A DNA stretch of 64,000 nt, from the NCBI GenBank assembly GCA_965603015.1, contig CBFDBJ010000003.1, forward strand, positions 8,013-72,012, written 5' to 3'. Shown here in pieces: positions 37,254 through 54,472 of the stretch; within the stretch, counting starts at the first letter, position 1; every line of letters begins with the position of its first letter. A model generated the notes under the pieces. It saw only the letters and a program-made list of their open reading frames with translations. It was not told the DNA's origin and ran no database searches. Source of the DNA: an uncultured Alphaproteobacteria bacterium. Lineage in GTDB: Bacteria; Pseudomonadota; Alphaproteobacteria; M2410. Position numbers and translations under genes: made by a program.

Positions 37254-38220
37254 GCTTTTCCGGTCTGGCCAACAGCAGACGCTTGCGGCCGTAGTCAACG
37301 GCAAACGGCGTTTGGCCCATCAGGTCCATGCCGAGCAGCATGGAGAACCGATCGGCGCGCCCGACGGTGAACTGCGCGAAAACCACCTCGACATCCTTCC
37401 AGACCTTTGAGCCGGCCTTCAGCGCCGGGAGGCGCACGATATAGCCGCGAATCGGATTGCCATTGACGCCGGTCATGGTGACTTGCTGTGCGCCTTCGAG
37501 GCTGACGCCCAGCTTTTTGTGCTCCGACGTCAGGATGGTGGTCATACTGGCGCCGGTATCGACCAGCGCGTTGAGCCTCTTGCCATTGATACCGGCTTTG
37601 ACAAACAGGGCTTTCTGCTCACCCTCAAACCGCAAGGGAATGGAATCAAAATATCCTGGCATGCTGCGCGTCAGGTTTGTCGTCTTCGGATAAAGCACCA
37701 TCATGTCGCGGGGAAAATCAAAGACCACAACATGATTTGTCAGATAGTCTGCCCCAAGAATACCTGAGAGGGGGCGACGATAATAGGAATAGTAATCGGG
37801 ATACTCCATCAAATGAGCCGGGTCGAGAGCAAAGACGGCAGCGCGGACAGAGCCAAATTCAAGAATTTTCAAGCGGACAAGACCGTCCGCCGCAGAGACC
37901 GTGATGGTTTCAACATGGTTGTTCTCGAGCGCGTTTTGCTGCACCACGGAATTCCAGATCCCGCTGGATGTGGCTCCGGTATCCACAACAAATTCAAACG
38001 GCCCCTTGCCATTGACATAGACGGGAGCGGAAATTTCATTGGCGCCGTGGACGGTCATGGCCATCTCCGCCACGACTTTGGCGGGGTCCTGAAGCGGCAC
38101 GTCTTCTGCAAGGGCTGACCCGGACAGGTCGGCGGCCGCGACCAGCACTGAAATCAGCACCTGACAACCCCGAAAGAGACGCGCGGAGCTCTCCCCCTTT
38201 TTGCAGGATTTGGCCTTCAT
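37117..38220 (-). CDS. secreted pseudo-dimeric retropepsin-like aspartic peptidase (two DTGA active-site motifs)
   Basis: Signal peptide. FEFVVDTGATSSGIW and LNALVDTGASMTTIL, i.e. tandem clan-AA Asp_protease_2-type lobes. The last 137 bp overlap the convergent GH20 gene. Confidence 0.65.
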   Translation of the reverse strand: MKAKSCKKGESSARLFRGCQVLISVLVAAADLSGSALAEDVPLQDPAKVVAEMAMTVHGANEISAPVYVNGKGPFEFVVDTGATSSGIWNSVVQQNALENNHVETITVSAADGLVRLKILEFGSVRAAVFALDPAHLMEYPDYYSYYRRPLSGILGADYLTNHVVVFDFPRDMMVLYPKTTNLTRSMPGYFDSIPLRFEGEQKALFVKAGINGKRLNALVDTGASMTTILTSEHKKLGVSLEGAQQVTMTGVNGNPIRGYIVRLPALKAGSKVWKDVEVVFAQFTVGRADRFSMLLGMDLMGQTPFAVDYGRKRLLLARPEKLNMVSRRDPRSQALVEAPEELQCSFPSAAREGLPCVVSPPPEAHR

Positions 38221-38333
38221 TTAGTCTTTTCCCCTGTTCGGCAACATTGCCCCCCGGCACGGCATTTCCCTGTCAGGTTAACCGACCGGTGTATTTGAGG
38301 CAACAGATCAACTCGCAGGCCGAAAAGCAGCGA

Positions 38334-39344
38334 TCAAACTTCCATGGGGATTTTGGGGCGGTAGAAGTTGAGGCGCAGGGCGTCGATTTTGCTGATGAGT
38401 TCGGGGGCGAGCGGGCCTTTGGCAAGACCCTCGACCAGCTCCTTTTGCTCCTGGCGGTTCTTGACGCCGGTCACGACGGTGGACACGCCCTCCATAGAAA
38501 GAGAGTAGCGATGGGCCAGGACCGCCGGGTTTTCACCCAGTTCCTCGCACAAGTCACGCCACGGTTTGGCGCGAATATAATCCATCATGTCGGGATCCGT
38601 GGTGTCGAGAAGCCGGTCCATTTTTGCGGTGAGCGCGCCGGCCTGGACGGCGCGAATGCCGATCACACCGACGTTATTATTGATTGCTGTACGGATAATA
38701 TTGCGCGGTTCGGGCGGCTCTTCATAGCGCCGGATGCCGCCGGGGCTGTCCATCAGGTTGGCGATGACCTGAACCGCATCAGGTTTTTGTTCGTGGCGCA
38801 GCGCCTGCATGACAAGCGAAGGCAAGCCAACACCGGTAATCCCCCACGCGGCAATCAGGCCCTTGGCCTTGAGTGCTGCGATGGCTGGCAGAAAGGCATC
38901 TTCGTAAGACCGCCACCGCGTGCACCACAGGTGCTGCGTGTCGGCGTTCTGCTTCATCTCGTAGTCTTCAGGAATAATCTGGGAATGCAAAAAGAAAATA
39001 TCGGCCTGCTCGCGTTTCATAGTCTTCAGAGAGCGAACGATGGAGCGCTCGATTTTCTCCAACATCTTGTCTGCGCTGAGTGTCCCCGCATTACATTTTG
39101 TGGTGATGCGCACGCCATCCGGCAGCTTGCCGTCAAACGCCTCGCCGATTACGCTTTCCGCCTCGCCCTTGCCATAGGACGGCGCCATATCGAGCAGGTT
39201 GATGCCCAGATCAACGGCTTCGCGCGCCGTGGCAATGGCCTCCTCGCGCGTGGTCTCGCCCCAGATCTGGCCAAGCCCGCCGCCGCCGAGCGCCAGTGCG
39301 CTAACCGGCCAGAGATTTCCAAGTTGTCGCCGTTCCATCATCAA
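38334..39344 (-). CDS. aldo/keto reductase
   Basis: AKR pattern LDMAPSYGKGEAESVIGEA...HSQIIPED. 336 aa. Confidence 0.85.
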   Translation of the reverse strand: MMMERRQLGNLWPVSALALGGGGLGQIWGETTREEAIATAREAVDLGINLLDMAPSYGKGEAESVIGEAFDGKLPDGVRITTKCNAGTLSADKMLEKIERSIVRSLKTMKREQADIFFLHSQIIPEDYEMKQNADTQHLWCTRWRSYEDAFLPAIAALKAKGLIAAWGITGVGLPSLVMQALRHEQKPDAVQVIANLMDSPGGIRRYEEPPEPRNIIRTAINNNVGVIGIRAVQAGALTAKMDRLLDTTDPDMMDYIRAKPWRDLCEELGENPAVLAHRYSLSMEGVSTVVTGVKNRQEQKELVEGLAKGPLAPELISKIDALRLNFYRPKIPMEV

Positions 39345-39369
39345 TCTCCTGTCGGTCGCCGAGGTCTAT

Positions 39370-40272
39370 CTAGTTCAGGGCAGAGGGTACAGGCACGCCG
39401 GCGATGCGGCAAGCGGCGGCCACCGTATTGCGCAGCAGACAGGCGATGGTCATGGGGCCGATGCCGCCGGGGACAGGGGTGATCGCTCCGGCCACCTCTT
39501 TGGCGGCCTTGTAATCCACGTCGCCGACGAGGCGGGTCTTGCCCTCCCCGCGTTCCGGCGCATCGATCCGGTTGATCCCCACGTCAAGGACCAGGGCGCC
39601 CGGTTTAATCCAGTCACCCTTGACCATTTGCGGCACGCCGACGGCGGCAACGAGAATATCTGCCGTGCGGCAGAGGTCGGGCAGATCTTTGGTACGCGAA
39701 TGCGCCATGGTGACGGTACAGTTTTCTGCGAGCAGCAATTGGGCGACCGGCTTGCCGACCAGGATCGAGCGTCCGATAACGACCGCATGTTTGCCTGTGA
39801 GGTCGCCAAGCGTGTCCTTTGCCAGCATCACGGTACCAAGCGGCGTGCAAGGGACGAGCCCCTCCTGGCCCAGCATCAACTTGCCGGCGCTCATCGGGTG
39901 AAGACCATCGACATCCTTTGATGGCTCGATGGTTTCAACGACTTTCTTTTCGTCGATGTGATCCGGCATCGGCAGCTGGCACAGGATACCGTGGACAGAG
40001 GGATTGGCATTGAGATTTTTGACAAGCGCGATGACGTCAGCCTCGGGCGTGTCGGCGGGCAAGAGATGTTCAAAACTCTCCATCCCGGCTTCGCGGGTCT
40101 TGATGCCCTTGTTTTTGACATAGACCTGGCTGGCCGGGTCGTCGCCAACCAGAACCACGGCAAGACCGGGGGTCAAATCATGGTCTTTTTTCAGGCTTGC
40201 GACGGCGTCGGCGACACGGGCGCGCAGGCCTTCGGCAAATTCAGTTCCGCTAATACGTTTGGCTTCACTCAT
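39370..40272 (-). CDS. folD: bifunctional methylenetetrahydrofolate dehydrogenase/methenyl-THF cyclohydrolase
   Basis: Pattern [16 protein letters not shown]...GGIGPMT. 300 aa. Confidence 0.92.
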
Positions 40273-40582
40273 TAAATTGTCCGAGCCAGGCTGTCAGTAT
40301 TTCTTCAAGCCGTTTTGGCTCTCCCTCGATCAGAATCATTTTGTTGCGTGACTGCTCACCGGCTATCACGCGCATGGTCGAGGGCGCAAGTCCTGTCTCT
40401 TTGCCGAGCAGTTTTATCAGCACTTTATTGGCTTTGCCGTTCTCCGGCGCGGCCGTGACGCGGACTTTCAGAGAAACCTTGCCATCTGCGGCCACATAGA
40501 GCCCGGCAACCGCATCGGATGAGGATTTTGGCGTCACCCGGCAGGCGAGGCGCGCGCCCTTCTGGTCCTGGCGGAGAGGCAT
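40265..40582 (-). CDS. yggU: DUF167 (YggU) family protein
   Basis: 105 aa. Pattern [22 protein letters not shown]. Conserved folD-yggU-yggT vicinity. Confidence 0.75.
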
Positions 40583-40600
40583 CCGCAGACCCTCTACGGC

Positions 40601-40882
40601 TTACTGAAACAACATTGAAGCCAGCAACCACCATGCAACCTGCACGCCGACGATGAGAACGATGGGCGAAAGATCGAGACCACCAATGGGCGGAATGACA
40701 CTGCGGAGCTTTTTGTAGGCCGGATCGGTCATCTTGAAGGTGAACGTATGAACACTCCGCACGAAGGCACTGCCACTGTTAATCACCTGGAAGTTGATCA
40801 ACCAGCTCAGGATGACATCGGCGATGATGATCCAGACGTAAAGACGGACCAGCAGGTCTATGGCTTGGAAGGGAGACATCAT
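40601..40882 (-). CDS. yggT: YggT family membrane protein
   Basis: Start reset to ATGATG at about 40882 (MMSPFQAIDLLVRLYVWIIIADVILSWL...). The track ORF is over-extended upstream. Confidence 0.7.
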   Translation of the reverse strand: MMSPFQAIDLLVRLYVWIIIADVILSWLINFQVINSGSAFVRSVHTFTFKMTDPAYKKLRSVIPPIGGLDLSPIVLIVGVQVAWWLLASMLFQ

Positions 40883-41071
40883 TTTGCCGTTTCTCCTTGA
40901 TTGGCGGGCTAAAGGGACATGTAGCGATTGATGCGGGCAACTGCAACCCCCGGGCCCCGTCCCGCCGGCAGGTTTCCGGGACAGGTCTTGCCATTTCCCG
41001 TCAGGCCTGAAAATCTTGCTCGCACGGCTCATTGATGTTGAAGTGATTGACATGTTTAGCCCTCCCCTTCA

Positions 41072-41201
41072 TGTCATCCCGGACGTAGCGATAGCGAAGA
41101 TCCGGAATCTCGGGATGAGATCGGGGAGGAGTTCGCGCGATCCTGTCCCGCGGAATCGTGCCCTGAGACCCCGGGTCGCGCTTTGCTTGCCCGGGGCGAC
41201 A
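41072..41201. repeat. REP-like palindromic element, subfamily B (copy 4)
   Basis: tgtcatcccggacgtagcgatagcgaagatccggaatctcgggatgag ... cgtgccctgagaccccgggtcgcgctttgcttgcccggggcgaca. Confidence 0.8.
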
Positions 41202-41221
41202 TTTATTTAGATGAGGGAAAC

Positions 41222-41959
41222 ATGACAGATCTTCTCGACTTCACAGGCAAGACGGTGCTCGTTGTGGGCGGCTCAAGCGGCATCGGCAATGGCATTGCAC
41301 AGGGCTTTCGGGCCAAAGGCGCGACGGTTCATGTCTGGGGCACGAGGGCGAGCGCGGCTGACTATGACGGCGAGGAAGGCAGCGACCTTGAAGGACTGTC
41401 CTACACACAGGTCGATGTCAGCTCCTCGCAAAATGTGGCCGAAGCGCCGCTTTCCTTCGACGCTCTTGATGTTCTGGTGCTGAGCCAGGGGACGGTGATC
41501 TATGGTCGCGGCGAGTTCGAGATGGAGGGGTTTGAGCATGTCATGGATGTCAACCTGACCAGCCTGATGGCCTGTGCGGTGCGCTGCCATGATCTCATCG
41601 CCGCCACCAAAGGCTCGGTCATTACGGTCAGCTCGACGGCAGGGTTTCAGGCAACGATGGGCAATCCGGCCTATGCGGCGTCCAAATCCGCTGCGGTCGG
41701 CCTGACCAAGGCGCTGGCCAAGGCGTGGGCGCGCGATGGTATCCATGTCAACGGGATCGCGCCCGGGCTGGTCGATACCAAACTGACCAAAATCACCACC
41801 GATAGTCCCGAGCGCCTCAAAGGCTCGCTGCGCGCGATCCCGGCGCGGCGCCTCGGCACGCCGCAGGACATGGCCAACGCCGCCCTCTTTCTGGCCTCGC
41901 CGATGGCGTCCTATATCTACGGGCAGACGATCATTGTTGATGGCGGGATTGTGCTTTAG
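41222..41959 (+). CDS. SDR family oxidoreductase
   Basis: Motifs TVLVVGGSSGIGNGIA and YAASKSAAVGLTKALA (YxxxK). Start at the ATG after gagggaaac. Confidence 0.85.
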   Translation: MTDLLDFTGKTVLVVGGSSGIGNGIAQGFRAKGATVHVWGTRASAADYDGEEGSDLEGLSYTQVDVSSSQNVAEAPLSFDALDVLVLSQGTVIYGRGEFEMEGFEHVMDVNLTSLMACAVRCHDLIAATKGSVITVSSTAGFQATMGNPAYAASKSAAVGLTKALAKAWARDGIHVNGIAPGLVDTKLTKITTDSPERLKGSLRAIPARRLGTPQDMANAALFLASPMASYIYGQTIIVDGGIVL

Positions 41960-42121: not shown

Positions 42122-43129
42122 ATGATGACCACAGGGCTCACCACTATGTCGCGCGGTAGAATTATTGGCGTGTCCACCGCGATTAGTCTCGTTACGCTGA
42201 TCGCCCTCCTCCTCTATAGTGACCTGGGCGTCTTGCGAGGCATTTTCCTGCAAGCCGATCTGTATTATTTTTTATTATGTGTTGCAGCCTACCTGGCGAT
42301 TGTTTTCTTCAGGGCCTGCCGGCTCCGGGTACTATTGCCTGCAGAGTCTCGCACGTCCCTGGCGTCCTGCTTTCAGCTCATTCTGGGTCATCAGATGATT
42401 TTTGCCATTGCCCCGGGGGGCCTGGGCGACCTCGCCTTTCCAGCGATGGCCAAAGTGCAGCTCAAGATTGGATGGCAGGAGGCGCTCAACAATCTCCTCA
42501 CCGTGCGTATTCAGGATTTTCTTTTCTTGAGTGTCATAGCGGGCATCAGCGCCGTGATTATGCTGACCGAGATCGGCGCCACAGTATCACTCCTGTTGCT
42601 CATTTCAGGAAGCATAATCTGCATACTGATATCAACACTGACGCCCGTCGCGTCAATGCTTCTGAACACTGTGATCCCCTGGGTGCAGAATAAATCACAT
42701 CAAATTCGAGCAAAGTTTCATTTGCCCGTAGATGCGCGCGAGAACACCTTTGTCAGCATCGACCATATTTCCGCCACCGCCCGCGCCCTTTCCATGGGCT
42801 TTACCGTCCTGTCATGGTTCGCAGCGGCACTTATGTTATGGATGGCGTTCTTGACCTTCGGCTTTGAGATCGCCGAATTTCACATCCTTATCCTTTTGCT
42901 CGGCCTCAATCTGATTGGAGCCGCCGCGATCTTCACAATAGGAGGAATGGGGATTGCCGAGGCGGGCCTGGCCGGCCTCCTCGTTGCCCTGGGCTATGAC
43001 AAGAGCAGCGCAATTCCTGTCGCTATGCTGGTCAGGCCAATGATTCTTTTCATTACACTCGGATTTGGAGGCGGCTACATTCCCCGCCTGCTAACCCTCA
43101 CCAAACTGCCAGACCGAAACCCTGAATAA
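42122..43129 (+). CDS. flippase-like membrane protein (lysylphosphatidylglycerol-synthase TM region / UPF0104 family)
   Basis: 335 aa, about 8 TM. Pattern typical of the YbhN/MprF-flippase-domain family. Confidence 0.55.
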   Translation: MMTTGLTTMSRGRIIGVSTAISLVTLIALLLYSDLGVLRGIFLQADLYYFLLCVAAYLAIVFFRACRLRVLLPAESRTSLASCFQLILGHQMIFAIAPGGLGDLAFPAMAKVQLKIGWQEALNNLLTVRIQDFLFLSVIAGISAVIMLTEIGATVSLLLLISGSIICILISTLTPVASMLLNTVIPWVQNKSHQIRAKFHLPVDARENTFVSIDHISATARALSMGFTVLSWFAAALMLWMAFLTFGFEIAEFHILILLLGLNLIGAAAIFTIGGMGIAEAGLAGLLVALGYDKSSAIPVAMLVRPMILFITLGFGGGYIPRLLTLTKLPDRNPE

Positions 43130-43771
43130 GGGCAAAGACAATGGCAGAGATGCACCCGAAACCAACGTGAACAGCTCCTTCACCTCTCGCTCGATCGCAT
43201 AGATGTTGGTCTCGTGATAATGGCCGTCAAAGCCGGCGATCTTGCGCCCCAGGCGATACAGCATGTTTTCTGTCGGTCCGGAGATGACGAGGAGCCCACC
43301 AGGCTTCAAGGCCGTTCTTAATTTGACAAGTATCTCCACAAAATTGCTGTTGTGCTCAAGAGAGTCCAACGCAAATATCAGGTCATAGTGCGCCGCGGGC
43401 AAGTGCTCCAGGTTTTGCTCATGCGCATCGGGAATTTGCTTTGCCAGGAAGTTTCGGGCCACAGCCTCTTCTTCGACAAAATGATACTCCCAGTTACCTG
43501 TCAGATGCGCCAGTTCTCCAACTGATGCACCAAAGTCCAGAACCGAAAGGCTCCGATTATTGCTACCTTCAGGGGGGTTGTTTCGCAGGCCGGTTTTCGC
43601 CATTGCCACGGCTTTGAACAACCGCCACCAGCTGACATAGGCTGCCAGGATATTTGGATGGCAATAAGACGGAACACAGGTTTCTTCCCATTCTTCAAAG
43701 TGGCCTTTTACATTAATGGCGTTGGCAAGCACCTTGCGTCTGTTTGATATGTGTCGGAACGCGCTAATCAT
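43091..43771 (-). CDS. class I SAM-dependent methyltransferase
   Basis: Motif I VLDFGASVGELAH. Motif post-I/II LVISGPTENMLYRLGRK. Start uncertain: the track ORF overlaps the GT2 gene by 56 bp, and an internal Met (MISAFRH) lies at about 43771. Confidence 0.65.
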   Translation of the reverse strand: MISAFRHISNRRKVLANAINVKGHFEEWEETCVPSYCHPNILAAYVSWWRLFKAVAMAKTGLRNNPPEGSNNRSLSVLDFGASVGELAHLTGNWEYHFVEEEAVARNFLAKQIPDAHEQNLEHLPAAHYDLIFALDSLEHNSNFVEILVKLRTALKPGGLLVISGPTENMLYRLGRKIAGFDGHYHETNIYAIEREVKELFTLVSGASLPLSLPLFRVSVWQFGEG

Positions 43772-43814
43772 TTGCTCTCTCACTTCATCCTGTTCGTATG
43801 GCTCTCGCCGGGTC

Positions 43815-44780
43815 TCAGAGTTTTCGCAGATCTTTGTGGATTGGCCTGGACGGTAAATTGGAAATGTCAAAATTCAGAAAATTGAACAACATTTGAATAC
43901 CAACCAGGAATGGCAAGGCAGCAAGCATCACTGTTCCCGTTGTCGCGGTTACGCCAGTTTCAATAGACTGCCCCCAGGCCGTCACACCGACCACCAGTCC
44001 AAACAAAGTCAGGCACGTTCCGGTTATGATCGATATCGAGGCAATCGAAAAGCCACGCAGGAAATAGTTATACATCAGTCGTTTCAGGAAGTTCCGGGCA
44101 TGCAGGAACGGGAACGTCATCAATACCTTGAATTCACTCATGTTGCTGGTCTCTTCGGCATAGACACTCACCATGGGGATCTCCACAACCTTGCCTCTGA
44201 CAATCGCCATTCGGAACAAGATATCGGATTCAAAGAAATACCGATCATTTAACTTGTTCAACTCCAGTTCATTGGCCACTGCGGCATGGATCGCGGTGAA
44301 CCCATTGACCGGGTCGAACAGATCCCAGTAGCCGGTTGACAATTTTGTCAGAAAAGACAGCGCAATATTGCCCAACATTCTGGATCGGGGAATCTGCTTG
44401 ATGGACGCCATATTGAAAAAGCGATTGCCCTTTACATAGTCTGCTTCGCCCTGAAGAATGGGGGCAATCAGATCGGGGATAATGGCCGGGTCCATCTGCC
44501 CATCACCATCCAATTTCACAATTACATCCATGCTGTCGTCGATTGCCGCCTGATAACCGGTTTTTGTCGCGCCTCCCACTCCGGTATTCACGGTGTGATG
44601 AACGACCGTGACACGGGGGTCCGTGGTGGCAAGGCGATCAAGGATCGACCCCGTTTCACCGGGACACGCATCATTAACACAATATATCCGGACGACTTCA
44701 TCACCGATGCGATTGACCACATCAGCAATGCTGTCAGATACCTTGAAACACGGAATGACAACTGCAACTTTCGCCTTCAT
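43815..44780 (-). CDS. GT2 polyprenyl-phosphate glycosyltransferase (GtrB/ArnC/DPM1-like) with C-terminal TM anchor
   Basis: VVIPCFKVSDSI...VNDACPGET N-terminal GT-A pattern. DGD motif in KLDGDGQMD. Two C-terminal TM helices. Confidence 0.8.
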   Translation of the reverse strand: MKAKVAVVIPCFKVSDSIADVVNRIGDEVVRIYCVNDACPGETGSILDRLATTDPRVTVVHHTVNTGVGGATKTGYQAAIDDSMDVIVKLDGDGQMDPAIIPDLIAPILQGEADYVKGNRFFNMASIKQIPRSRMLGNIALSFLTKLSTGYWDLFDPVNGFTAIHAAVANELELNKLNDRYFFESDILFRMAIVRGKVVEIPMVSVYAEETSNMSEFKVLMTFPFLHARNFLKRLMYNYFLRGFSIASISIITGTCLTLFGLVVGVTAWGQSIETGVTATTGTVMLAALPFLVGIQMLFNFLNFDISNLPSRPIHKDLRKL

Positions 44781-46339
44781 TGAATGTCCTCACCAAATTC
44801 CTGCTCATCCGCTTGAACATAAAAATCAAACCCTTCAACGCTGCTCACTTTCCTGTACTTTTCCCAGAGCTCGGCAAATTTCAAATCCTCGCTATAAAAG
44901 GCCGTAAAATCAAATGGCCGATCAGCGATTGCATGCTGCACCTTGCGCCGGTCTACCAAAACCAGATGCGGAGAAAAGGTCTCGAGGGTCAGCATGACCT
45001 CCGATCGGGCAAACTTTTCCAGCCCTTCGTCCCGCACGTGTCTGTCTGTCCTCGACTTGACGATGGCAGGGATAGCCATGTGGCTGTTGCTTCTTCCCAC
45101 CCATCGGGCGCTCACCACTAAGGCCGTTGGAAAGCCGGGGAACGGGTGCGTTGAAAAGGCTGTGAAGGTGCGGTTCGCAGCAAGCTTCTCTACTTCAGCT
45201 GAAATTCGGGTTTGCCGCAGCTGCAGCGGGCCTGCCTCGCCGGTCTCCCGGATTGACCAGAGTGCCGCGGGCAGGCCAAACCCGACGAAGAGCATGAGCA
45301 GGATCAAATAGAGGATGCTCCGTGACGCTCTCGGCCTTATCACGCTGGATTGAAAGCTCCGGTCCGGCGCATTCGCTGTCGCCAGAATGCCAATGGCAAC
45401 CGTCACGTAGACCGGGAACACATGATAGGTATATCCCTTGGACTGCCACAGAAAACTGAAGGCAAATCCCAGTGCAACAATCAGCAAAATGACCTGCTCC
45501 GAGGACAGGCGGAACCGGTTTACCGAAAGGATCGCAACCCAGGCCAGCAGAGCCAAAAACAGGGACTTGTAGGCGCCGATAATATCCATCTTCGCTTCAT
45601 TGAAGCCCCAGTAAAGATCCGTAATAAGAGGAATAACCTCAGTCAAATAGGCCGGGGCAAAAAGCACTGTGCTGGTCAGAGCTATAATTATTGATACGGC
45701 CAGGGCGTAATACTCAATCCAGGTGAACACCTTCAGGCCGGACCTGTACAACGAGTACAAGCCCATCACTGCGGGAATGAATAACAAGTAGGGCTTTAAC
45801 AGGATACCGATTGCAGCCAGTATACCAGCGGTAATGGCTGATACAGCGCCCGGCGTGAGACCGCGCAACCGCACGATGTTAGTGGAGGCAAAGACGAGAA
45901 TACAAAAGAGGGATATGTATTCGCGCTGCCCAAAATCCCGCCAGGCGAAGGCAAAACAAAAGAAGGCGATACAGCCGACCACTTGCCAGGCCAAAAGACA
46001 GTCTTCCTTGCGCCTTGTCATATTCAGATTGACGTAAATTTGGTACAGGCCTGCTGTGGCGCCAAGCAGAATAGCGACGCGGTAAACCTCATAGGACGGT
46101 CGTCCAAGACCCTGGGCCAACCACACAACAGGGAGGTTCAAAAACCAGATAAACGGCGGATTTGGCTCTATGATATCCCGGCCATAGACGGCGCCTTGTG
46201 TCATCCTCTCGGCGCCAAACAAAATCCATCCGATATCATGATTGATGGGAACGTTGAATTGAACCAGTGTGCACACTAATATGCTGAGCAGCACTGCAAA
46301 CACTCGCCAGTACGGGTCCACCCTCATTAAGAATGTCAT
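44777..46339 (-). CDS. GT-C superfamily polytopic membrane glycosyltransferase (ArnT/PMT/Gtr-type-specific-like)
   Basis: About 12 TM helices followed by a C-terminal soluble domain. The 4-bp ATGA overlap with the GT2 gene suggests translational coupling. Start is either at 46384 (track) or at MTFLM about 46339. Confidence 0.6.
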   Translation of the reverse strand: MTFLMRVDPYWRVFAVLLSILVCTLVQFNVPINHDIGWILFGAERMTQGAVYGRDIIEPNPPFIWFLNLPVVWLAQGLGRPSYEVYRVAILLGATAGLYQIYVNLNMTRRKEDCLLAWQVVGCIAFFCFAFAWRDFGQREYISLFCILVFASTNIVRLRGLTPGAVSAITAGILAAIGILLKPYLLFIPAVMGLYSLYRSGLKVFTWIEYYALAVSIIIALTSTVLFAPAYLTEVIPLITDLYWGFNEAKMDIIGAYKSLFLALLAWVAILSVNRFRLSSEQVILLIVALGFAFSFLWQSKGYTYHVFPVYVTVAIGILATANAPDRSFQSSVIRPRASRSILYLILLMLFVGFGLPAALWSIRETGEAGPLQLRQTRISAEVEKLAANRTFTAFSTHPFPGFPTALVVSARWVGRSNSHMAIPAIVKSRTDRHVRDEGLEKFARSEVMLTLETFSPHLVLVDRRKVQHAIADRPFDFTAFYSEDLKFAELWEKYRKVSSVEGFDFYVQADEQEFGEDIQ

Positions 46340-46350
46340 GCTGTACGCGT

Positions 46351-46572
46351 TCACTGGTCCGGCACCTTGCTGATCTGCGACCATGCGCGCAGCCGGTCAT
46401 CAGGATCTCGGTCTGCGCGGTCGGGACCTGCGGCGCACGACAAGTCCTCAGACGCATAACTGAAACGCTTGTGCAATTCCTCCAGCCCGTCTTCCTCGTT
46501 AAAAACAGGAATAAGGATGGAGAGCGTGTAGCTTTCCTTTTCTGCACTCTCGCAGCTGATCTCTTGTGTCAT
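46351..46572 (-). pseudogene. remnant N-terminal fragment of a GT2 glycosyltransferase
   Basis: MTQEISCESAEKESYTLSILIPVFNEEDGLEELHKRF matches the DPM1/GtrB-type N-terminus (SIVIPVYNEE...). It then degenerates and stops after 73 codons, overlapping the GT-C gene. Confidence 0.4.
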
Positions 46573-46776
46573 CGGGCGCGCATTGCTCTGCCGTGTTTAC
46601 AGTGCGCTAACCCTAGCTCAACAGCCTTTAATGACCGTTAAGCAACCCTCGAAACCCCGGAACCGGCATTAAGACTTTGATAATCTGCTCGATCCCCGGC
46701 CCCCCCGCACCTGACGGGACATCACGAAGAGCATAATTTCAGAAGTAAACGGGGAGCTTAGTGTGCCGGGCTGGCG

Positions 46777-46911
46777 TATCAGGCCAGCGCCAGAAAGCTG
46801 CCGACGGCAACGACGGCAACCGTTAGATAGCCGGCCACGAAGAGAAGGAAGGCTTCTCTGGTTTTTCCGGGCTTGCGCCCATTTTTCTGTTCGGAATTCG
46901 ATACGTGGGAC
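46777..46911 (-). CDS. possible 44-aa single-TM small protein
   Basis: ATG preceded by GAAGGAA. Reads MSHVSNSEQKNGRKPGKTREAFLLFVAGYLTVAVVAVGSFLALA then stop. Below the track size cutoff. Weak evidence. Confidence 0.2.
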
Positions 46912-47022
46912 ATGCATCATTCCTTCGACAAAAATAATTACCCCTGAATGCGAGAAGTCCTAGACCCTTGTGCCGGATCTGACAACCCTCAATCGAGCTA
47001 CATTTTTGTGAAAAACCCGATC

Positions 47023-47949
47023 TTAAAATCTGCCACCTTCGTGGAGCCAGCGCCGCAGATCCGCGGGAAGTTTTCTTGCGACTGCTTCTTCATAGAATGC
47101 AAGATCGTCACCTGAAAATGCGGTCTGCCATTTGCCGGATCCACCCTGGTTGAAGAAGCGGCTGTTGTCTTTCCAGCCACCCCAGTCGACGTCCGGCGCC
47201 ATCTGATCTGCAGCGCCCTTCATCGCGTCAAAGCGCGCGGCCTCAACCAGAGACGGCCAGACCTCCTCGTTCACGGCAACCCCGAGAACACCGGAAATTC
47301 GCCGCATTTCACCATCAAGATCACGCAGCAGATCGCCATAATGGACAAAGTGAATATTCGGCAGGGTACGGAACTTCCAGAAACTTGTGGCATGGGAAAA
47401 CAACGACCAGAAGGGCCAGCCGTCGTCCTCCCAGTCAAAGCAGCCGGTGGTGAGCCAGGCGCGCAGCATGGACGCAAGATCCGTTGGCATCTCGTCCAGC
47501 TCAACCCGCGAACGGGTCGAGTTCGCCTGGAGAACCTCGCCCGCCGCATCGTTGGAATTGTCCATGTGATTGAGCATGGACATAAAAATATCGCGCGGAT
47601 CACGGGCAACGAAAAGATAGGTCGCTGCGCGGCGATACGGCAGACCGTCGAGCGGGGTATGGCTCTTGATGAAGCGCCGGTGGGTTTGTGCCTCGTAGTC
47701 GGCGCGTAACTTCTCGATTGGTTGCCCGTTAATCTCGAGCCAGGGCGAATAGGTCGTCAGCGGCTGTTCCAGCTCCGGCGTCTGGAACACCAGCAGCGAA
47801 CAGATGCGCTGCATCCACGTGGTACCGGCCTTGTAGGCGGTACAGATCAGGATATCGTCATCACGATGTTTGAAACCCTCCCATCTGGCAGAATTCCAGA
47901 TGAAATGCTCATAGTGACGCGTCAGCTCAGGCAGATGCTCATCAGCCAT
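47023..47949 (-). CDS. PAPS-dependent sulfotransferase family protein
   Basis: 5-prime-PSB motif ICTAYKAGTTWMQRI. 3-prime-PB region RDPRDIFMS. 308 aa. Confidence 0.75.
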   Translation of the reverse strand: MADEHLPELTRHYEHFIWNSARWEGFKHRDDDILICTAYKAGTTWMQRICSLLVFQTPELEQPLTTYSPWLEINGQPIEKLRADYEAQTHRRFIKSHTPLDGLPYRRAATYLFVARDPRDIFMSMLNHMDNSNDAAGEVLQANSTRSRVELDEMPTDLASMLRAWLTTGCFDWEDDGWPFWSLFSHATSFWKFRTLPNIHFVHYGDLLRDLDGEMRRISGVLGVAVNEEVWPSLVEAARFDAMKGAADQMAPDVDWGGWKDNSRFFNQGGSGKWQTAFSGDDLAFYEEAVARKLPADLRRWLHEGGRF

Positions 47950-48123
47950 TGTCAGACATCCTCCCCTGGATTCTCTTGCTTGAGTTCGGAGGGATTAAAT
48001 AGATGGTTTCTCGCCGGATCAAGCATCACCATCAAGCATCTCTGTCAGGCGGTGGATCAGTCGTCGATTGACGGGTCGGCGATATTTTGATATTTGTCGA
48101 AATATGAACAGGGAGCGAAGCGC

Positions 48124-49428
48124 ATGAACGAAGAAAATCCTGAAATCACTAGCGCCGCGGAAGACTGCGACTGCAAGGAGGGCATGTTTCCCGATCCGGG
48201 CAGGCGGGCGCTCTTGCTCGGTGGCGCGGCTCTGGCGGGGACCGGATTGCTCGCTGGCAGGGCCGGGGCACAAGCGGCTCAGGGCGCATCGCAGCACGCG
48301 GTACTTGATGATCCAACGAGCCAGCCCGGCCCCGCATCCGGTGGCGGCTATGGCCTGCGCTCACAGTTTGAGACCGTATCGCGCTGGGAATTTCCCCTGC
48401 CCCAACCAGGTGTGTCCGGTTCCTTCACACCACTGGCCGGCACCCATGGCACGATCACGCCCTCGGGGCTTCACTATGAGGTCCACCGAGGCGGTGTGCC
48501 GACGATTGATCGGGCGCGGCACAGGCTCTTGATCCATGGCAAGGTGAAGCGCGCCAAAGTTTTCACCATGGCTGATCTCTATCGTTTTCCCTCCGTCACA
48601 CGCACCGCGTTTCTTGAGTGCGCTGGCAATGGCGGTATGGAATATGCGCGGCCCAGCATGCCACATGTTCAGGGCACGCATGGATTAACCTCCAATTCTG
48701 AATGGACCGGTGTTGCACTCTCGACCCTGCTGCGCGAAGTCGGTCTTGACGATGGCGCAGAGTGGCTTTTGGGCGAGGGTTCGGACGCTGGCATGCACAC
48801 CCGCTCGATCCCGATCGACAAGGCGATGGACGATGCGATCCTGGCCTATGCGCAGAACGGCGAGGCGATCCGCCCGGAACAGGGTTATCCGCTGCGTCTC
48901 CTTCTGCCCGGCTTTGAAGGCAATATGTCGATCAAATGGCTGCGCCGCCTTGACGTGACCGACAAGCCGAGCTTCACCCGGCCAGAGGTTACCACCTATG
49001 CCGACACGCTGGCGGACGGGACAACACGCTATTTCACCTGGGAGATGGAAGCCAAGTCCGTCATCACCTTTCCGTCTGGCACCATGAAGCTGCCGATCCC
49101 TGGCACCTACGAGGTTACCGGCCTTGCCTGGTCCGGTCGCGGCAAGATAACCGGCGTTGAAATATCTACCGACGGCGGCAAGACATGGGGGCAGGCAAAT
49201 CTTGTCGCGCCGGTCCTGTCCATGGCCCACACGCGCTTTACCTTCGGCTGGCGCTGGGATGGCAAGCCCGCCGTCCTGCAATCGCGCGCCACAGACGAGA
49301 CCGGTTATGTGCAACCGACCATCAAGGCGCTGGTTGATGTGCGCGGGGTCAATTCGAAAGACCACAATAACGGCATCCAGAGCTGGGCCATCGACGCAGA
49401 AGGGAATGTGACCAATGTTCATGCCTGA
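48124..49428 (+). CDS. sorA: sulfite dehydrogenase molybdopterin subunit (sulfite oxidase family, Tat-exported)
   Basis: Tat motif RRALLLGGAALAG. Moco-Cys motif FLECAGNGG. C-terminal dimerisation domain. Start chosen at ATG 48124 after GGGAG. Confidence 0.8.
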   Translation: MNEENPEITSAAEDCDCKEGMFPDPGRRALLLGGAALAGTGLLAGRAGAQAAQGASQHAVLDDPTSQPGPASGGGYGLRSQFETVSRWEFPLPQPGVSGSFTPLAGTHGTITPSGLHYEVHRGGVPTIDRARHRLLIHGKVKRAKVFTMADLYRFPSVTRTAFLECAGNGGMEYARPSMPHVQGTHGLTSNSEWTGVALSTLLREVGLDDGAEWLLGEGSDAGMHTRSIPIDKAMDDAILAYAQNGEAIRPEQGYPLRLLLPGFEGNMSIKWLRRLDVTDKPSFTRPEVTTYADTLADGTTRYFTWEMEAKSVITFPSGTMKLPIPGTYEVTGLAWSGRGKITGVEISTDGGKTWGQANLVAPVLSMAHTRFTFGWRWDGKPAVLQSRATDETGYVQPTIKALVDVRGVNSKDHNNGIQSWAIDAEGNVTNVHA

Positions 49429-49954
49429 GAACAAAATCCGGACAAGCCTTCTGTGCGGGCTTTTACTTGCGGCTTGCAATCCCGACAGCAACGCCCGGAC
49501 CGGCGAGCAATTTCCGGAGCTTGGCAGCCCGGCGCCGCATGCGTTGATCGAGGCCTGGGATCGGGATGTGCGCTATGACGGCGCCGGACTGCCGCCGGGC
49601 GAAGGCACATACGATCAGGGGGCCCGGGTCTATGCCAAACACTGCACCGCCTGTCACGGCGAGGCGCTGCGCGGCGTCGAAGGTGTTCAGGGTGGGCCGC
49701 TGATCGGGGAGGGTCCGACCGTGACACAGCACTGGCCCTACGCGCCGACCTTCTTTGACTACGTGCGCCGCGCCATGCCGTTCAACGCGCCGAACTCGCT
49801 TGCCGATGACCAGATCTATGCGCTTGCTGCCTATATCTTCGCCGAGGGCGGTATTTACCCGGCAGACAAGCCGATGAATGCGGCGGCGCTGACGGCAATG
49901 GAAATGCCAAACCGTGATAATTTCGTGCCCGACCCGAGGCCGGATGTGAAGTGA
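49415..49954 (+). CDS. sorB: sulfite dehydrogenase cytochrome c subunit
   Basis: Signal peptide. Single heme motif KHCTACHGE. Start overlaps the sorA stop. Confidence 0.75.
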   Translation: MFMPENKIRTSLLCGLLLAACNPDSNARTGEQFPELGSPAPHALIEAWDRDVRYDGAGLPPGEGTYDQGARVYAKHCTACHGEALRGVEGVQGGPLIGEGPTVTQHWPYAPTFFDYVRRAMPFNAPNSLADDQIYALAAYIFAEGGIYPADKPMNAAALTAMEMPNRDNFVPDPRPDVK

Positions 49955-50002
49955 TGCGGCACCCTTCCCGGGCGAACGATCATCTGACCGCGCCCGGCCC
50001 CG

Positions 50003-51400
50003 TCAAGACCCGGCCCGACTAAAGGCAAGAGTGACCGTCGTGCCTTTGCCGACTTCGGAGGCCAGCGTTACAGTGCCGCCGTGCAGATCCATCAAACCCT
50101 TGACCATGGAGAGCCCCAGCCCTGTGCCCTGGCGTTGACCACGATAACTGTTGTCGACCTGCTGAAAGGGCATAAAGAGATTCTTTTGAACCTCTTCGGG
50201 GATGCCTTCGCCCTCATCAGCGATGGCGATATAGACAAACTCTTCGTCCTGACGACAGGCTATATCGAGCTTCTTGTCCTCGGGAGAATATTTAATCGCG
50301 TTGGAAAACAGGTTGAAAAAGATCTGGCGCGCCGCGCGCTCGTCAACTTCTACATGCCCAACGGTATCGGCACCACTGATCGACACATCAAAACCTTCTT
50401 TGCTGATGTCGCTGTCGAGCAACCGCAGACTGGTGCGCATGACGTCCGGAATCGCAAGGGGCTGAGTGTGCAGCTCAAGCTGACCGGATTCAATTTTGGC
50501 CAGGTCGAGAACGTCGTTGAGGATGGACAATAGATGGTGGCCACTATCATGAATATTGGTAATAAAATTGATATTTTGCGGTCTGGGCAGGTCTTCTGCC
50601 CTGGTTCCAGCCAGGATCTCCGAAAACCCGATGATGGCATTCAGGGGCGTGCGTAGCTCATGGCTCATATTCGCCAGGAATGCGGATTTGGCCTTGTTGG
50701 CGCGAACCTCATCATCGCGAACCGCACGAACTTCGTCGCCAAGCATTTCATGATTGATCCGAAGCATCACATGACGACGGTATCTTTCGTTCAACTGCTG
50801 ACAGATAATGATGAGCCACAGAATAAAAGGAATAGAAAGACCAAAAGTGAGGACACTCATTGGCGTGGGGTAGATGGCAAACAGGGCAAGAACGGTCAGG
50901 AAGGGCGGTATTGCGGTTACAATGAAGTGAGAGCGCAAGTTGGAATACTGAACGACGCCGGTGAACAAATATCCAAACAGCATGATCTCAAGAAAGAGAT
51001 TGTTTACCAGATCGCCTGGCACCCACATCAAGACAGAAACATAGGACCAGGTGAGCCCCGCCAGGAGCTGGTTCACCAAAAATAGTCTGTGCCATTTGTC
51101 AGAGTTCGGGCTTTTTTCTTCAAAGTATACGCGTGCCGCCAGGAATGAAACTCCCGAACAGATCATGACCGCCGCCAGTGCGAACAGACTGTTGCGCAGG
51201 GGAACCGCACCCAAAATACTGGAAACATGCGCCAGAAGGGTGACTATACCCCCCCAGATCAGCATACCGGTCGCGCTGGTTCGGTAGGACCCGGCCGTTG
51301 TCCCAACCTGCTCGGCAAAAAGACGGTCACACATTGCCGACCCCTCTGCATCGCAGGTCACACCAGGCGTTTTGTGATTTCCTGAAAGTTCCCCAACCAC
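50003..51400 (-). CDS. membrane sensor histidine kinase
   Basis: Six N-terminal TM helices. H-box MSHELRTPLNAIIGFSEIL. N/G-boxes GTGLGLSMVKGLMDLHGG. Confidence 0.85.
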   Translation of the reverse strand: MVGELSGNHKTPGVTCDAEGSAMCDRLFAEQVGTTAGSYRTSATGMLIWGGIVTLLAHVSSILGAVPLRNSLFALAAVMICSGVSFLAARVYFEEKSPNSDKWHRLFLVNQLLAGLTWSYVSVLMWVPGDLVNNLFLEIMLFGYLFTGVVQYSNLRSHFIVTAIPPFLTVLALFAIYPTPMSVLTFGLSIPFILWLIIICQQLNERYRRHVMLRINHEMLGDEVRAVRDDEVRANKAKSAFLANMSHELRTPLNAIIGFSEILAGTRAEDLPRPQNINFITNIHDSGHHLLSILNDVLDLAKIESGQLELHTQPLAIPDVMRTSLRLLDSDISKEGFDVSISGADTVGHVEVDERAARQIFFNLFSNAIKYSPEDKKLDIACRQDEEFVYIAIADEGEGIPEEVQKNLFMPFQQVDNSYRGQRQGTGLGLSMVKGLMDLHGGTVTLASEVGKGTTVTLAFSRAGS

Positions 51401-51518
51401 TCAAACACATGCCCTGTCTTGAACTTTACTATTGAGCCCCTTCAACAGCACCGACTATTAAGACAATCCGGTAAAGGATGTGTTGCGAAAGAGCCTGGAT
51501 ACACCCCTGGCCCGTGGA

Positions 51519-52178
51519 TCAGGCAAAACGCTCACCCCATGTGTCAGCAAAGAAGAGCTCGGCAACAGGCTTTCGCGCGACAGGTCCATGGCCCTTGCCG
51601 ACAGGATAGCCGAGCGGGATCATGGCGGCGGTGCCCCAACCCTCAGGGATGCCGAGCAGTGTCTTCACGGCGTCCTCTTCCATGCACAGCAATGTGGTCA
51701 GGACACAGCCGAGCCCCTCGGCGCGGGCGGCGAGGAGAAGGTTTTCCACCGCCGGGTAGATCGAGCCGCCGCCGACGACCGAGACACGGTCCAGCCCGGC
51801 ATCGGTCACGGCCATATAGTCCGGATTAAAGCAGACGACGACCAGAACCGGCAACGCCTTCATATGGTCTGCCAGATGATCGCCTGCGGCCAACGTTCGT
51901 TCTTCTTTTGCTCGCTCTTCATCAGACAAACGGGACGACCCCTTCCTGTGCATCGCCGCGTAGTCGTTCCATCTTGCCTTGTAGAGCTCGCCGAGGCGGG
52001 TCTTTGCGACTGTGTCTGTCACGGCAATCATGCGCCACGGCTGCCGATTGCCGCCGGTCGGGGCGAAGGTCGCGGCCTCAAAAACCCTCGTCAGCACGTC
52101 GTTCGGGATCGGATCCGGCCGTAGCTTGCGGACTGCCCTCATCGTGCTCATGGCTTCGTACAGTTTCATATCGCTCAT
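51519..52178 (-). CDS. nitroreductase family protein
   Basis: MRAVRKLRPDPIPNDVLTRVFEAATFAPTGGNRQPWRMIAV. Start at the internal ATG (MSDMKLY). Confidence 0.8.
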   Translation of the reverse strand: MSDMKLYEAMSTMRAVRKLRPDPIPNDVLTRVFEAATFAPTGGNRQPWRMIAVTDTVAKTRLGELYKARWNDYAAMHRKGSSRLSDEERAKEERTLAAGDHLADHMKALPVLVVVCFNPDYMAVTDAGLDRVSVVGGGSIYPAVENLLLAARAEGLGCVLTTLLCMEEDAVKTLLGIPEGWGTAAMIPLGYPVGKGHGPVARKPVAELFFADTWGERFA

Positions 52179-52310
52179 GGGATCACCCTTTCTGCAGACC
52201 TGTCTCATACTGTTTGATCAATCTCTGGCGTGCTCGTGTCAAGATCTTTGGTCGACAGATGTTGGCACATGAGGCTGGTATCGCGATCCTTTATTCGCTA
52301 TCCAGGGGAC

Positions 52311-53898: not shown

Positions 53899-54179
53899 GG
53901 CCGAAGCCTACGACAGCACCAACGATGTGTCAAGTTTTCTCAAGTAAAAACAATGGTTTACGAAATTTAACCATCCGTATCCGGATGATAGTTAAGGGGA
54001 TGTAAACAAAATATTTCAATTTGTCTTAACGGCTTGGCGCGCGGGTTACAGCGACATCAAAGACCATCTGCCTTCAAAACCACCTGCCTGACAGGTCCCT
54101 TTGTCTGAAAAATCCGGGATGGTTCAGGTATGATCCGCGACCCTGCGCGCAAGCGAACAGGGCCGATCCGACCTGATCA

Positions 54180-54199
54180 TGATTGATCATGATCAATCA
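54180..54199. promoter_or_regulatory. perfect 20-nt palindrome tgattgatcatgatcaatca
   Basis: Exact reverse-complement symmetry. Contains two GATC. Confidence 0.5.
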
Positions 54200-54245
54200 G
54201 GGCCCTTAACCAATTTGCAGCGGATTCGAATGTCGGGATAAAGTA

Positions 54246-54293
54246 GAGCGGAACAGATCCTATGAAGGGGTCGCGACTGGATCTGTTCCGCTC
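54246..54293. promoter_or_regulatory. hairpin with perfect 15-bp stem (gagcggaacagatcc - 18 nt - ggatctgttccgctc)
   Basis: Read directly. No U-tract, so not a canonical terminator. Followed by a second 7-bp stem, ttgctct-aattaacgcc-agagcaa. Confidence 0.5.
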
Positions 54294-54438
54294 GAAGCTC
54301 TGTTGCTCTAATTAACGCCAGAGCAATGCAGACCTCGCAAAGACCATGCCAGGCACGCGGCGCGCGCAATATCCTGTATTTTTTCCATAATTTGGCTTTC
54401 GAGCAACTTTGAAGAGAACTTCCGGGGTGGTCTTTGCA

Positions 54439-54472
54439 TTTTGCAATTCGATTTGCAAATCGAATTGCAAAA
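54439..54472. promoter_or_regulatory. perfect 34-nt palindrome ttttgcaattcgatttgcaaatcgaattgcaaaa (candidate operator)
   Basis: Exact 34-nt dyad built from TTGCAA and TCGAA modules. Ends about 50 bp upstream of the FliL-like ORF. Confidence 0.55.

Follow-up and report, generated by a model that had tools for sequence, protein, structure and literature searches.

The Gtr clusters of Shigella and Salmonella phages combine a GtrA flippase, the bactoprenol glucosyltransferase GtrB and a type-specific GT-C enzyme (Gtr), and the Arn pathway (ArnC, ArnD, ArnE/F, ArnT) has relatives in the FlmF/NaxD/FlmK proteins of Francisella and in LgmABC of Bordetella. In the Arn, NaxD/LgmC and DprE systems, the lipid-linked sugar is well known to be tailored before it is flipped. 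A general three-component scheme consists of a synthase of the lipid-linked donor, a flippase and a GT-C enzyme (PMC11127046), and a new GT-C family, GT136, was defined from this kind of locus in pentofuranose systems, in which auxiliary enzymes likewise act on the lipid-linked donor (Kelly et al. 2024, PMC11127046). In archaea, UPF0104 (arCOG00899) genes neighbour those of an AglD-like GT2 and an STT3/PMT-like enzyme (Makarova et al. 2015, PMC5898192), and the proteins of COG0392/PF03706 are predicted flippases of lipid-linked saccharides (PMC5898192). Periplasmic glycosylation by three components drives variation of the cell surface and resistance to phages and antimicrobial peptides, and with every GT-C family that was newly defined, GT136 in 2024 for example, a further set of glycans has become accessible. 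Here we describe a locus at positions 42122-47949 of a 64,000-nucleotide stretch of contig CBFDBJ010000003.1 from an uncultured alphaproteobacterium (hereafter the window), in which the genes of a membrane protein with a predicted GT-C fold (X), a membrane-anchored GT2, a methyltransferase and a flippase-like PF03706 protein lie together.

We consider it likely that the core of this locus, 42122-46354, forms an accessory cassette, complete in itself, for glycosylation in the periplasm after assembly, and that it has replaced an earlier cassette composed of an ArnC-like GT2, a paralogue of X, a methyltransferase and GtrA. The combination is new: the three-component scheme is known, but here its GT-C enzyme belongs to a new family, a PF03706 protein stands in for GtrA as the predicted flippase, and tailoring enzymes are integral to the set. 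The locus reveals a large GT-C family that is invisible to profile libraries, suggests that the widespread PF03706/UPF0104 proteins may have the concrete task of flipping lipid-linked sugars, and provides a clean natural example in which one cassette has supplanted another at a fixed site of the chromosome and left a legible scar.

The closest parallel is with the Gtr clusters, since both have a membrane-anchored GT2 coupled to a GT-C enzyme in a small, swappable gene set and would act by periplasmic addition after assembly; moreover, the alternative cassette that a relative carries at the same place (L032, below) includes a GtrA-family flippase, and GtrA-X fusions exist. The window differs in that its flippase candidate belongs to PF03706/UPF0104 and not to GtrA (PF04138), that the GT-C gene precedes the GT2 gene, that a methyltransferase is integral to the set, that there is no prophage context, and that X has no detectable similarity to known GT-C families. 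With the Arn pathway the locus shares ArnT as the best structural match of X (TM 0.55) and an upstream gene remnant, orf73, of the ArnC type, and the cytoplasmic tailoring that precedes flipping there (deformylation by ArnD, deacetylation by NaxD) is a precedent for the methyltransferase step; however, X has no ArnT, PMT or PMT_2 match in Pfam, the tailoring enzyme is a methyltransferase, and the region holds no ArnD-, ArnA- or ArnB-like gene and no SMR-type flippase. The GT136 loci likewise unite a synthase of a lipid-linked donor, a flippase, a GT-C enzyme with a C-terminal periplasmic domain and auxiliary enzymes, but their synthase is a polyprenyl phosphoribose synthase and not a GT2, their flippase is of the MATE type and they lie within O-antigen clusters, whereas the cassette of the window stands alone (PMC11127046). 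The archaeal UPF0104 neighbourhoods contain the same trio of protein classes, although they are dolichol-based, serve N-glycosylation of the S-layer and use another GT-C family, and the flippase role is a prediction there too. Finally, the Gram-positive CsbB/GtcA/YfhO systems (PMC8035078) resemble the locus in that a GT2, a small flippase and a GT-C enzyme decorate a pre-made extracytoplasmic polymer, and differ in the families of the flippase and the GT-C enzyme and in their teichoic acid acceptors, which are not expected in a Gram-negative lineage.

Layout and composition of the region

All six open reading frames (ORFs) that an earlier model-made reading of the sequence (the original prediction) had proposed for the region are present where it placed them (Table 1), and in our corrected annotation four of them belong to the cassette, one is a pseudogene relic and one is an unrelated gene of the flank. 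The same reading had described the stretch as richer in AT than its surroundings. Indeed, its GC content is 0.531 as compared to 0.582 in the remaining window, which makes it the lowest-GC 5.8-kb stretch of the window, about 3.6 standard deviations (sd) under the mean; among non-overlapping segments of equal size none falls below 0.550 (mean 0.582, sd 0.014). It is the four core genes that account for the deficit (0.49-0.535); at 0.571 the sulfotransferase gene is near normal, and the drop in GC at third codon positions (GC3) is modest (0.59-0.64 vs 0.63-0.74). The neighbours that we scanned on the two sides, at 37117-41959 and 48094-52208, are housekeeping or metabolic genes.

Table 1 Features of the region in the window, followed by related elements on other contigs (L numbers)
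Feature	Position	Strand	Basis or remark
Flippase-like gene, PF03706/UPF0104 (MprF-flippase-domain family)	42122..43129	+	Pfam, TIGR00374
S-adenosylmethionine (SAM)-dependent methyltransferase gene, third gene of the operon	43091..43771	-	Methyltransf_23 (longest ORF 43091-43870)
Membrane-anchored GT2 gene	43815..44780	-	PF00535 Glycos_transf_2, dolichol-phosphate mannose synthase (DPMS) 5mlz
Gene of X, membrane protein with predicted GT-C fold	44777..46354	-	AlphaFold2 + Foldseek (longest ORF 44777-46384)
orf73, 5' relic of an ArnC-like GT2 gene	46351..46572	-	Homology to the L032 GT2
Non-coding spacer, sulfotransferase gene to relic	46573..47022	.	ORF there broken in relatives
Putative 3'-phosphoadenosine 5'-phosphosulfate (PAPS) sulfotransferase gene, probable backbone flank	47023..47949	-	Sulfotransfer_1 E 1.6e-39
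Alternative cassette	L032:11923-15739 (L033 same)		Preceded by gene of a 919-aa DUF5117/DUF4953 protein
Other slot occupant	L034:9818-12632		Contig ends inside; preceded by Fer2 and MoCoBD oxidoreductase genes
Divergent sulfotransferase gene	e.g. L003:5788-6582, L013:4142-4909		Carried by L003-L008, L013-L016, L018, L020, L021, L023-L025

Proteins of the cassette

X comprises 535 aa when it is read from ATG 46384, public gene calls begin at GTG 46354, and its start codon is uncertain because gene callers disagree on the length (505, 525 or 535 aa). Sequence comparison places the protein nowhere: X has no match in Pfam or NCBIfam, thirteen members of its family have none in Pfam even at E ≤ 1, a profile of 80 family sequences run against the sequences of the PDB returned nothing but noise (EmrE, RNase II, E > 0.06), and exact-sequence look-ups of the X, P0001 and sulfotransferase of the window in public records gave no entry. 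The picture is different at the level of structure. An AlphaFold2 model built with the 80-sequence alignment (predicted local distance difference test, pLDDT, 94.5; predicted TM-score, pTM, 0.92) starts with about 12 long helices and ends in an alpha/beta domain of about 150 aa, and when it was compared to the PDB by Foldseek, the first 15 matches were all GT-C enzymes (STT3, ArnT, DPY19, ALG12, ALG9, ALG3, AftA, AftB, AftD, AglB; probability 0.99-1.00, E 5e-5 to 2e-2, TM about 0.36-0.55), with the following matches at a probability of ≤ 0.5 and ArnT as the best overall match (TM 0.55/0.54). The earlier description of the gene as that of a GT-C enzyme with 12 transmembrane helices thus agrees with the model, and its opposite, a membrane protein that is no glycosyltransferase, found no counterpart in a structure search whose credible matches were GT-C enzymes only. 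By its modelled fold, X belongs to the GT-C glycosyltransferase superfamily, while standing outside the curated families of that superfamily (PMT, PMT_2, STT3, ArnT-type) in having no Pfam or NCBIfam membership.

Residues that are invariant in the 80-sequence alignment of X are D40, G54, P67, Q143-R144-E145, K187, Y310 and P314. Of these, D40 is part of an N-H-D motif five residues past helix 14-33, on a side of the membrane that is taken to be periplasmic from the positive-inside rule only, and the acidic and basic loop residues would suit a GT-C active site. A k-mer-limited search had made the family look rare (88 proteins), a view that was overturned by an exhaustive profile search, which found 9,494 clusters at 50% identity (E ≤ 1e-3), 4,435 of them at E ≤ 1e-30. 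The X family is thus a large, undescribed family of membrane glycosyltransferases for which neither Pfam nor NCBIfam has a model. The exhaustive search also brought up fusion proteins (P0311, P0347, P0317). GtrA-X fusions, with GtrA at the N-terminus, occur twice among the top 150 representatives of the family, and one further family member is fused to a C-terminal sulfatase-family domain plus SGSH_C; the activity of this last fusion is uncertain because the C/S-x-P-x-R motif is replaced in it by a non-canonical S-T-W-T-R.

The GT2 protein matches PF00535 (Glycos_transf_2, E 1.5e-19) and, in the PDB, solely the dolichol-phosphate mannose synthase of Pyrococcus (5mlz, E 1.7e-13); near its C-terminus lie two hydrophobic helices (246-264 and 277-295). 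By sequence, it is of the polyprenyl-phosphate glycosyltransferase type (DPMS/GtrB/ArnC class) and the predicted maker of the lipid-linked sugar donor. Its best NCBIfam matches, PpgS, AglJ and ArnC, are all users of polyprenyl phosphate, but no specific orthology can be claimed, because their scores lie far under the equivalog cut-offs. The TGA stop of X overlaps the ATG start of the GT2 gene (ATGA), exactly the translational coupling that had been noted before. Given this coupling, the adjacency of the two genes and the GtrA fusions, X is predicted to use a polyprenyl-phosphate-linked sugar donor.

The methyltransferase (Methyltransf_23, Pfam E 1e-10) starts at ATG 43771 and has 226 aa, a start that we set because homologues align from residue 34 of the longest reading frame and public gene calls agree; the exact product is found in public collections. 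It has no hydrophobic helix and is hence of a soluble type, and it is predicted to act on the sugar or the lipid-linked sugar at the cytoplasmic side. Its gene converges with that of the flippase-like protein, the 3' ends overlapping by 39 nt (43091-43129); a similar convergent overlap of about 30 nt is seen in the locus of an Emcibacteraceae genome (L001:13152-13181). The flippase-like protein (335 aa, about 8 hydrophobic helices) matches PF03706 LPG_synthase_TM over profile positions 3-299 of 302 (E 1.4e-25, 90.8 bits, cut-off 33.4) and the NCBIfam model TIGR00374 'flippase-like' (44.9 bits vs a cut-off of 43.2). Only PF03706 was found in it, and not the aminoacyl-PG synthase domain of MprF (DUF2156). 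By analogy with MprF, and in line with the published prediction for the family (PMC5898192), it is a predicted flippase of the lipid-linked sugar. The ratio of nonsynonymous to synonymous divergence (dN/dS) in comparisons with close relatives is 0.06 for the GT2 gene, 0.2 for the methyltransferase gene and, against relatives of 91% identity, 0.10-0.17 for the flippase-like gene; across all four cassette genes it spans 0.06-0.22, and the cassette is thus under purifying selection.

Recurrence of the module in other genomes

A scan for the pattern of the X locus, with one genome per species, gave 27 loci, a number to be read as a lower bound; two of them (L001 and L002) are the same contig and were counted once, which leaves 26 distinct loci. 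The hosts are marine alphaproteobacteria (Emcibacteraceae, Kiloniellales, Celeribacter, Roseovarius, Roseibium, Pelagibius, Sphingomonas alba, Croceicoccus, Qipengyuania, Novosphingobium and Aestuariivirga), planctomycetes and gammaproteobacterial metagenome-assembled genomes. Species among them that can be cultured include Celeribacter halophilus, Roseovarius halotolerans, Roseibium denhamense, Sphingomonas alba and Pelagibius marinus. When the proteins of the window were searched against these loci by tblastn, the GT2 gene was found directly after X in 21 of the 26, at 47-61% identity across phyla, and is thus far better conserved than X itself, which is only 26-42% identical across loci. 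The methyltransferase gene follows the GT2 gene in 10 other loci (46-58% identity), and a convergent PF03706 gene is present in 17/26. Taken together, X and a DPMS-like GT2, with or without the methyltransferase, and the convergent PF03706 gene recur in about 20 unrelated genomes. The original prediction had compared the locus to the logic of GtrB and a partner GT-C enzyme, a comparison that is borne out by the modelled fold, the DPMS-like GT2, this adjacency and the GtrA-X fusions.

The genes that flank the module differ in every other host, and the GC content of the module departs from that of the host flanks by -0.084 to +0.083. As the departure goes both ways and the flanking genes are never the same, the pattern fits repeated lateral transfer. 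In four loci of the gammaproteobacterial type (L017, L019, L022, L026) there is no cognate GT2 beside X; an ArnC-like GT2 of the type seen in orf73 and L032, 30-47% identical to the L032 GT2, lies a few kb off.

When all flanking ORFs were clustered, a single further partner was seen to recur, a divergent sulfotransferase of about 260 aa, encoded directly upstream of the PF03706 gene in 16/26 loci (tblastn); wherever both ORFs were called (12/12 loci), the longest reading frames of the two genes overlap. Seven of 10 members match Sulfotransfer_3 in Pfam, four Sulfotransfer_4 and one Sulfotransfer_1, all sub-threshold, and no credible match to anything other than a sulfotransferase was seen, one member having a noise-level match (E 0.18). 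The motifs SAGRTGT and VREPxxWxxS, read by eye, fit the two PAPS-binding loops, and the family profile found in the PDB only 4gox (E 0.09), deposited as 'Polyketide synthase', which we take to be a sulfotransferase domain. A kinship with the sulfotransferase of the window was considered and dropped, as hhalign shows the two to be unrelated.

The suggestion that the transferred sugar might be sulfated gains independent support from this different sulfotransferase, whose gene stands beside the flippase-like gene in 16 of the 26 loci, but tblastn finds that gene absent from the whole window. The recurrent link to the X family suggests that marine alphaproteobacteria and planctomycetes may have sulfated glycans in their envelopes. 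One could also speculate that the sugar is sulfated (in the window methylated instead) while on cytoplasmic polyprenyl phosphate, flipped by the MprF-like PF03706 protein and installed by X as a member of a new GT-C family; we regard this as a tentative proposal, with the odds rather against it. If true, it would explain how sulfated sugars reach envelope molecules in a compartment without PAPS, and would give the PF03706 proteins their first defined role beyond the flipping of aminoacyl lipids. In the literature that we searched we found no sulfotransferase within a three-component glycosylation system.

The chromosomal slot in relatives

The relatives that we compared are metagenomic contigs, with relatedness judged from gene identity alone (FolD 77-97%); the FolD of the window itself is at most about 70% identical to that of any named species, e.g. 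Tepidicaulis marinus. Three contigs (L029-L031), at about 91% identity to the window, have the same cassette, in the order sulfotransferase gene, orf73, X, GT2, methyltransferase, convergent flippase-like gene, SDR, yggT, yggU and folD. More distant relatives share this backbone (sulfotransferase 67-79% and FolD 77-89% identical) and vary exactly between the sulfotransferase gene and SDR/yggT. In L032 and L033, the slot holds a protease gene and then the genes of an ArnC-like GT2, a 556-aa protein, a Methyltransf_23 protein and GtrA. The 556-aa protein is a paralogue within the X family (266 bits, E 1.5e-82 with the X profile; 23% identical to X), and the Methyltransf_23 protein is 27% identical to the methyltransferase of the window. 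In L034, the slot is occupied by a 348-aa GT2 of another type and a 573-aa membrane protein outside the X family. In L035, L036 and L037 it contains a GST and a U32 peptidase gene and no glyco genes, and L038 has neither the cassette nor the sulfotransferase gene.

Relatives that share the backbone thus show four states of the slot, the pattern of presence and absence that characterises a genomic island, and the atypical composition of such islands is found as well in the lowest-GC 5.8 kb of the window. Conservation of the synteny throughout the family together with normal composition would have spoken for the contrary, and a comparison of synteny and composition, both proposed at the outset, found neither. 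The claim that the module is transferable has likewise stood up, with another cassette or none at the slot in relatives and a GC content that departs from the flanks in other hosts. The data support the view that the cassette is accessory and transferable and resides in a variable slot between the sulfotransferase gene and SDR/yggT-yggU-folD. Its exchange likely proceeds via homologous recombination in the conserved flanks.

A second indel of this plastic neighbourhood may be represented by a histidine-kinase gene (50003-51400, GC 0.526), which lies between the genes of the sulfite dehydrogenase cytochrome subunit and a nitroreductase and has no counterpart in L030 and L031.

A relic of the previous occupant

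Residues 1-47 of orf73 align at 55% identity with the same residues of the L032 GT2 (E 2e-14); LIPVFNEEDGLEELH is shared, 15 residues in a row being identical, and at the nucleotide level 46446-46523 is 77% identical to L032 11972-12049 over 78 nt, colinearly. Recognisable homology is confined to about 47 codons (46432-46572), the remainder of the frame having none, and because the similarity stops after codon ~47 we place a breakpoint near 46430. Family profiles barely recognise this fragment: orf73 has no GT2 match in Pfam, also in a frameshift-repaired version, and weak ArnC and GT matches only in NCBIfam (E 0.04-0.12). A duplication of the resident GT2 gene as its source was rejected on comparison with that gene. 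By its homology, orf73 is the relic of the ArnC-like GT2 gene that headed the previous cassette, and the simplest history is one in which a cassette of the L032 type was replaced by the present one downstream of codon ~47 of its first gene. The original prediction had taken the 73-codon fragment for a trace of such an exchange, and the intact homologue in a syntenic relative agrees with this. Relic homology, together with another cassette or none at the slot in relatives, thus supports both an island and an exchange of cassettes.

Between the window and its close relatives, orf73 is 85% identical in nucleotides as compared to 94-95% for its neighbours, its differences are spread over the codon positions without periodicity (11/10/12), and its dN exceeds that of the genes beside it 4- to 10-fold; it evolves like unconstrained DNA. 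Yet in all four sequences (the window and its close relatives, ~15% diverged in orf73) the frame stays open at exactly 73 codons without an indel, and its stop overlaps the GTG of X (GTGA). It is therefore conceivable, though in our judgement unlikely, that orf73 has been kept as a leader ORF that provides X with a promoter, a ribosome-binding site and translational coupling. The lack of codon periodicity and the raised dN speak against such a role, a rough estimate puts the chance of the frame staying open at ~0.1-0.2, and the overlap depends on a start of X that is itself uncertain.

The spacer upstream of the relic presumably holds the promoter of the cassette; it has no Rfam match, and scans for promoters and terminators did not rise above shuffled sequences. 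An 83-codon ORF in it (46669-46920) was rejected as a gene on account of stop codons in relatives. The segment 46921-47022, just downstream of the sulfotransferase stop, is 96-97% identical in the three close relatives, slightly above the surrounding coding DNA; it has no Rfam match, and as the excess amounts to a few positions it may be due to chance.

The sulfotransferase gene

The protein encoded beyond the spacer matches SULT1/2 enzymes in the PDB (up to 8e-16), and its translation contains YKAGTTW, KSH and RDPRDIFMS, which read as the 5'-phosphosulfate-binding (5'-PSB) motif, the catalytic His and the 3'-phosphate-binding (3'-PB) motif. Judged by these motifs, it is a cytosolic-type PAPS sulfotransferase (PF00685). 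It had been counted among the genes of the module, an assignment that the comparison does not support, since the gene stands beside the slot in L032, in L034 and in the cassette-free L035-L037, whatever the slot holds, and no homologue is present in any of the 27 other X loci. Its family ('aryl sulfotransferase', 3,742 matches) is large and generic. The gene is 93% identical in L030 and 77-82% in L029 and L031 (dS 0.9-1.4), with the genes on both sides at 91-95%. Being kept in relatives without the cassette, generic in family, normal in GC and uncoupled from the cassette in its alleles, the gene is probably a part of the flanking backbone and not of the cassette. The divergence seen in L029 and L031 indicates a divergent allele or a local recombination event.

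We also considered that this sulfotransferase is a working part of the module, which would take the place of the dedicated sulfotransferase seen elsewhere at X loci and add sulfate to the sugar or to the acceptor. Its position on the strand of the relic and 450 nt upstream of it, an arrangement kept in L030 and L031, would be in line with this, as would the lack of a sulfotransferase of its own in the cassette of the window, when 16/26 X loci have one, and the fusion of one X-family protein to a sulfatase-family domain. We nevertheless find it improbable, given that the gene occupies the same place next to a different cassette or none, that its solved relatives sulfate small molecules, that its alleles diverge independently of the cassette (77-82% vs 94%), and that the spacer and a dead gene lie between it and the operon; its generic family, normal GC and absence from other X loci point the same way.

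On its other side, the sulfotransferase gene adjoins genes of a SorA-like molybdopterin oxidoreductase and a cytochrome c of the sulfite dehydrogenase type (48094-49954). Of the other loci, only that of the Emcibacteraceae likewise has a SorAB pair, together with TauD and with SorA duplicated; it is found on the opposite side of the module, no more than 6 kb away. A functional link between the cassette and the sulfite dehydrogenase genes was dropped, as it recurs in this one locus only and may reflect coincidence or shared ancestry.

A proposed pathway

From the folds and families of the proteins, the conserved linkage of their genes, the purifying selection and the GtrA fusions, one can outline a route whose order, sugar, methylation target and acceptor we infer. 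At the cytoplasmic face, the membrane-anchored GT2 would load polyprenyl phosphate with one sugar, taken from a common nucleotide sugar, and the soluble SAM-dependent methyltransferase would then modify the lipid-linked sugar or its precursor. The PF03706 protein would flip the lipid-linked sugar, and X would transfer the sugar to an envelope acceptor at the periplasmic face. Since the clusters of flanking ORFs contain no nucleotide-sugar genes that travel with the module, the sugar is probably a common one. Sphingomonads, which are among the hosts, are not known to have a classical lipopolysaccharide (LPS), and this argues against an acceptor restricted to LPS.

Several points weigh against this reading. 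The evidence comes from sequences, structural models and gene neighbourhoods. X has no sequence-level link to any characterised GT-C enzyme and the TM-scores of its Foldseek matches are moderate; the methyltransferase could target something else than a carrier-linked sugar; and the flippase-like protein is unmatched in the PDB, whether by its sequence or by its family profile, to any solved structure, that of MprF included, while a single-sequence model of it, made with no alignment, has a pLDDT of 52.8 and is unusable. As to mobility, there is no tRNA gene in the whole window and no direct or inverted repeat flanks the cassette beyond short matches at chance level, so that neither is at hand to explain its movement, and among the scanned neighbours there is no integrase or transposase gene, the window as a whole not having been searched for these directly. 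In the closest relatives (~91% in nucleotides), moreover, the synteny of the cassette is stable and its conservation does not exceed that of the folD flank; because the two identities are equal there is no sign of a recent transfer, and such a transfer among the closest relatives was rejected.

The points on mobility, together with the modest drop in GC3, would be expected if the locus were an ordinary, vertically inherited operon for envelope biosynthesis, its low GC reflecting the composition of membrane proteins and no island at all. We think this very unlikely, for genus-level relatives with the same backbone hold another cassette or none, the relic of a previous occupant is still in place, and in other hosts the flanks always differ and the GC of the module lies up to 0.084 below or 0.083 above them. 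Hardly more probable is that X is some other GT-C-fold enzyme (an oligosaccharyltransferase, ligase or polymerase) that uses polyprenyl-diphosphate glycans and not a polyprenyl-monophosphate donor, for although its fold matches include the oligosaccharyltransferases STT3 and AglB and it has no sequence similarity to any enzyme of known donor, it is tightly linked in most loci, by translational coupling, to a DPMS-like GT2 of the monophosphate type, it occurs fused to GtrA, ArnT is its best overall structural match, and the conserved neighbours of the X loci include no initiating phosphoglycosyl transferase, Wzx or Wzy.

Other features of the window

Other patches of lower GC (0.50-0.55, 1-3 kb) are found at 12001-14000, 21001-23000, 32001-34000, 54001-57000 and 62001-63000, each shorter than the cassette. 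The only Rfam match of the window above the gathering score is an ffh small RNA of the alphaproteobacterial type (RF01793, 51.8 bits) at 3976-4029 on the minus strand.

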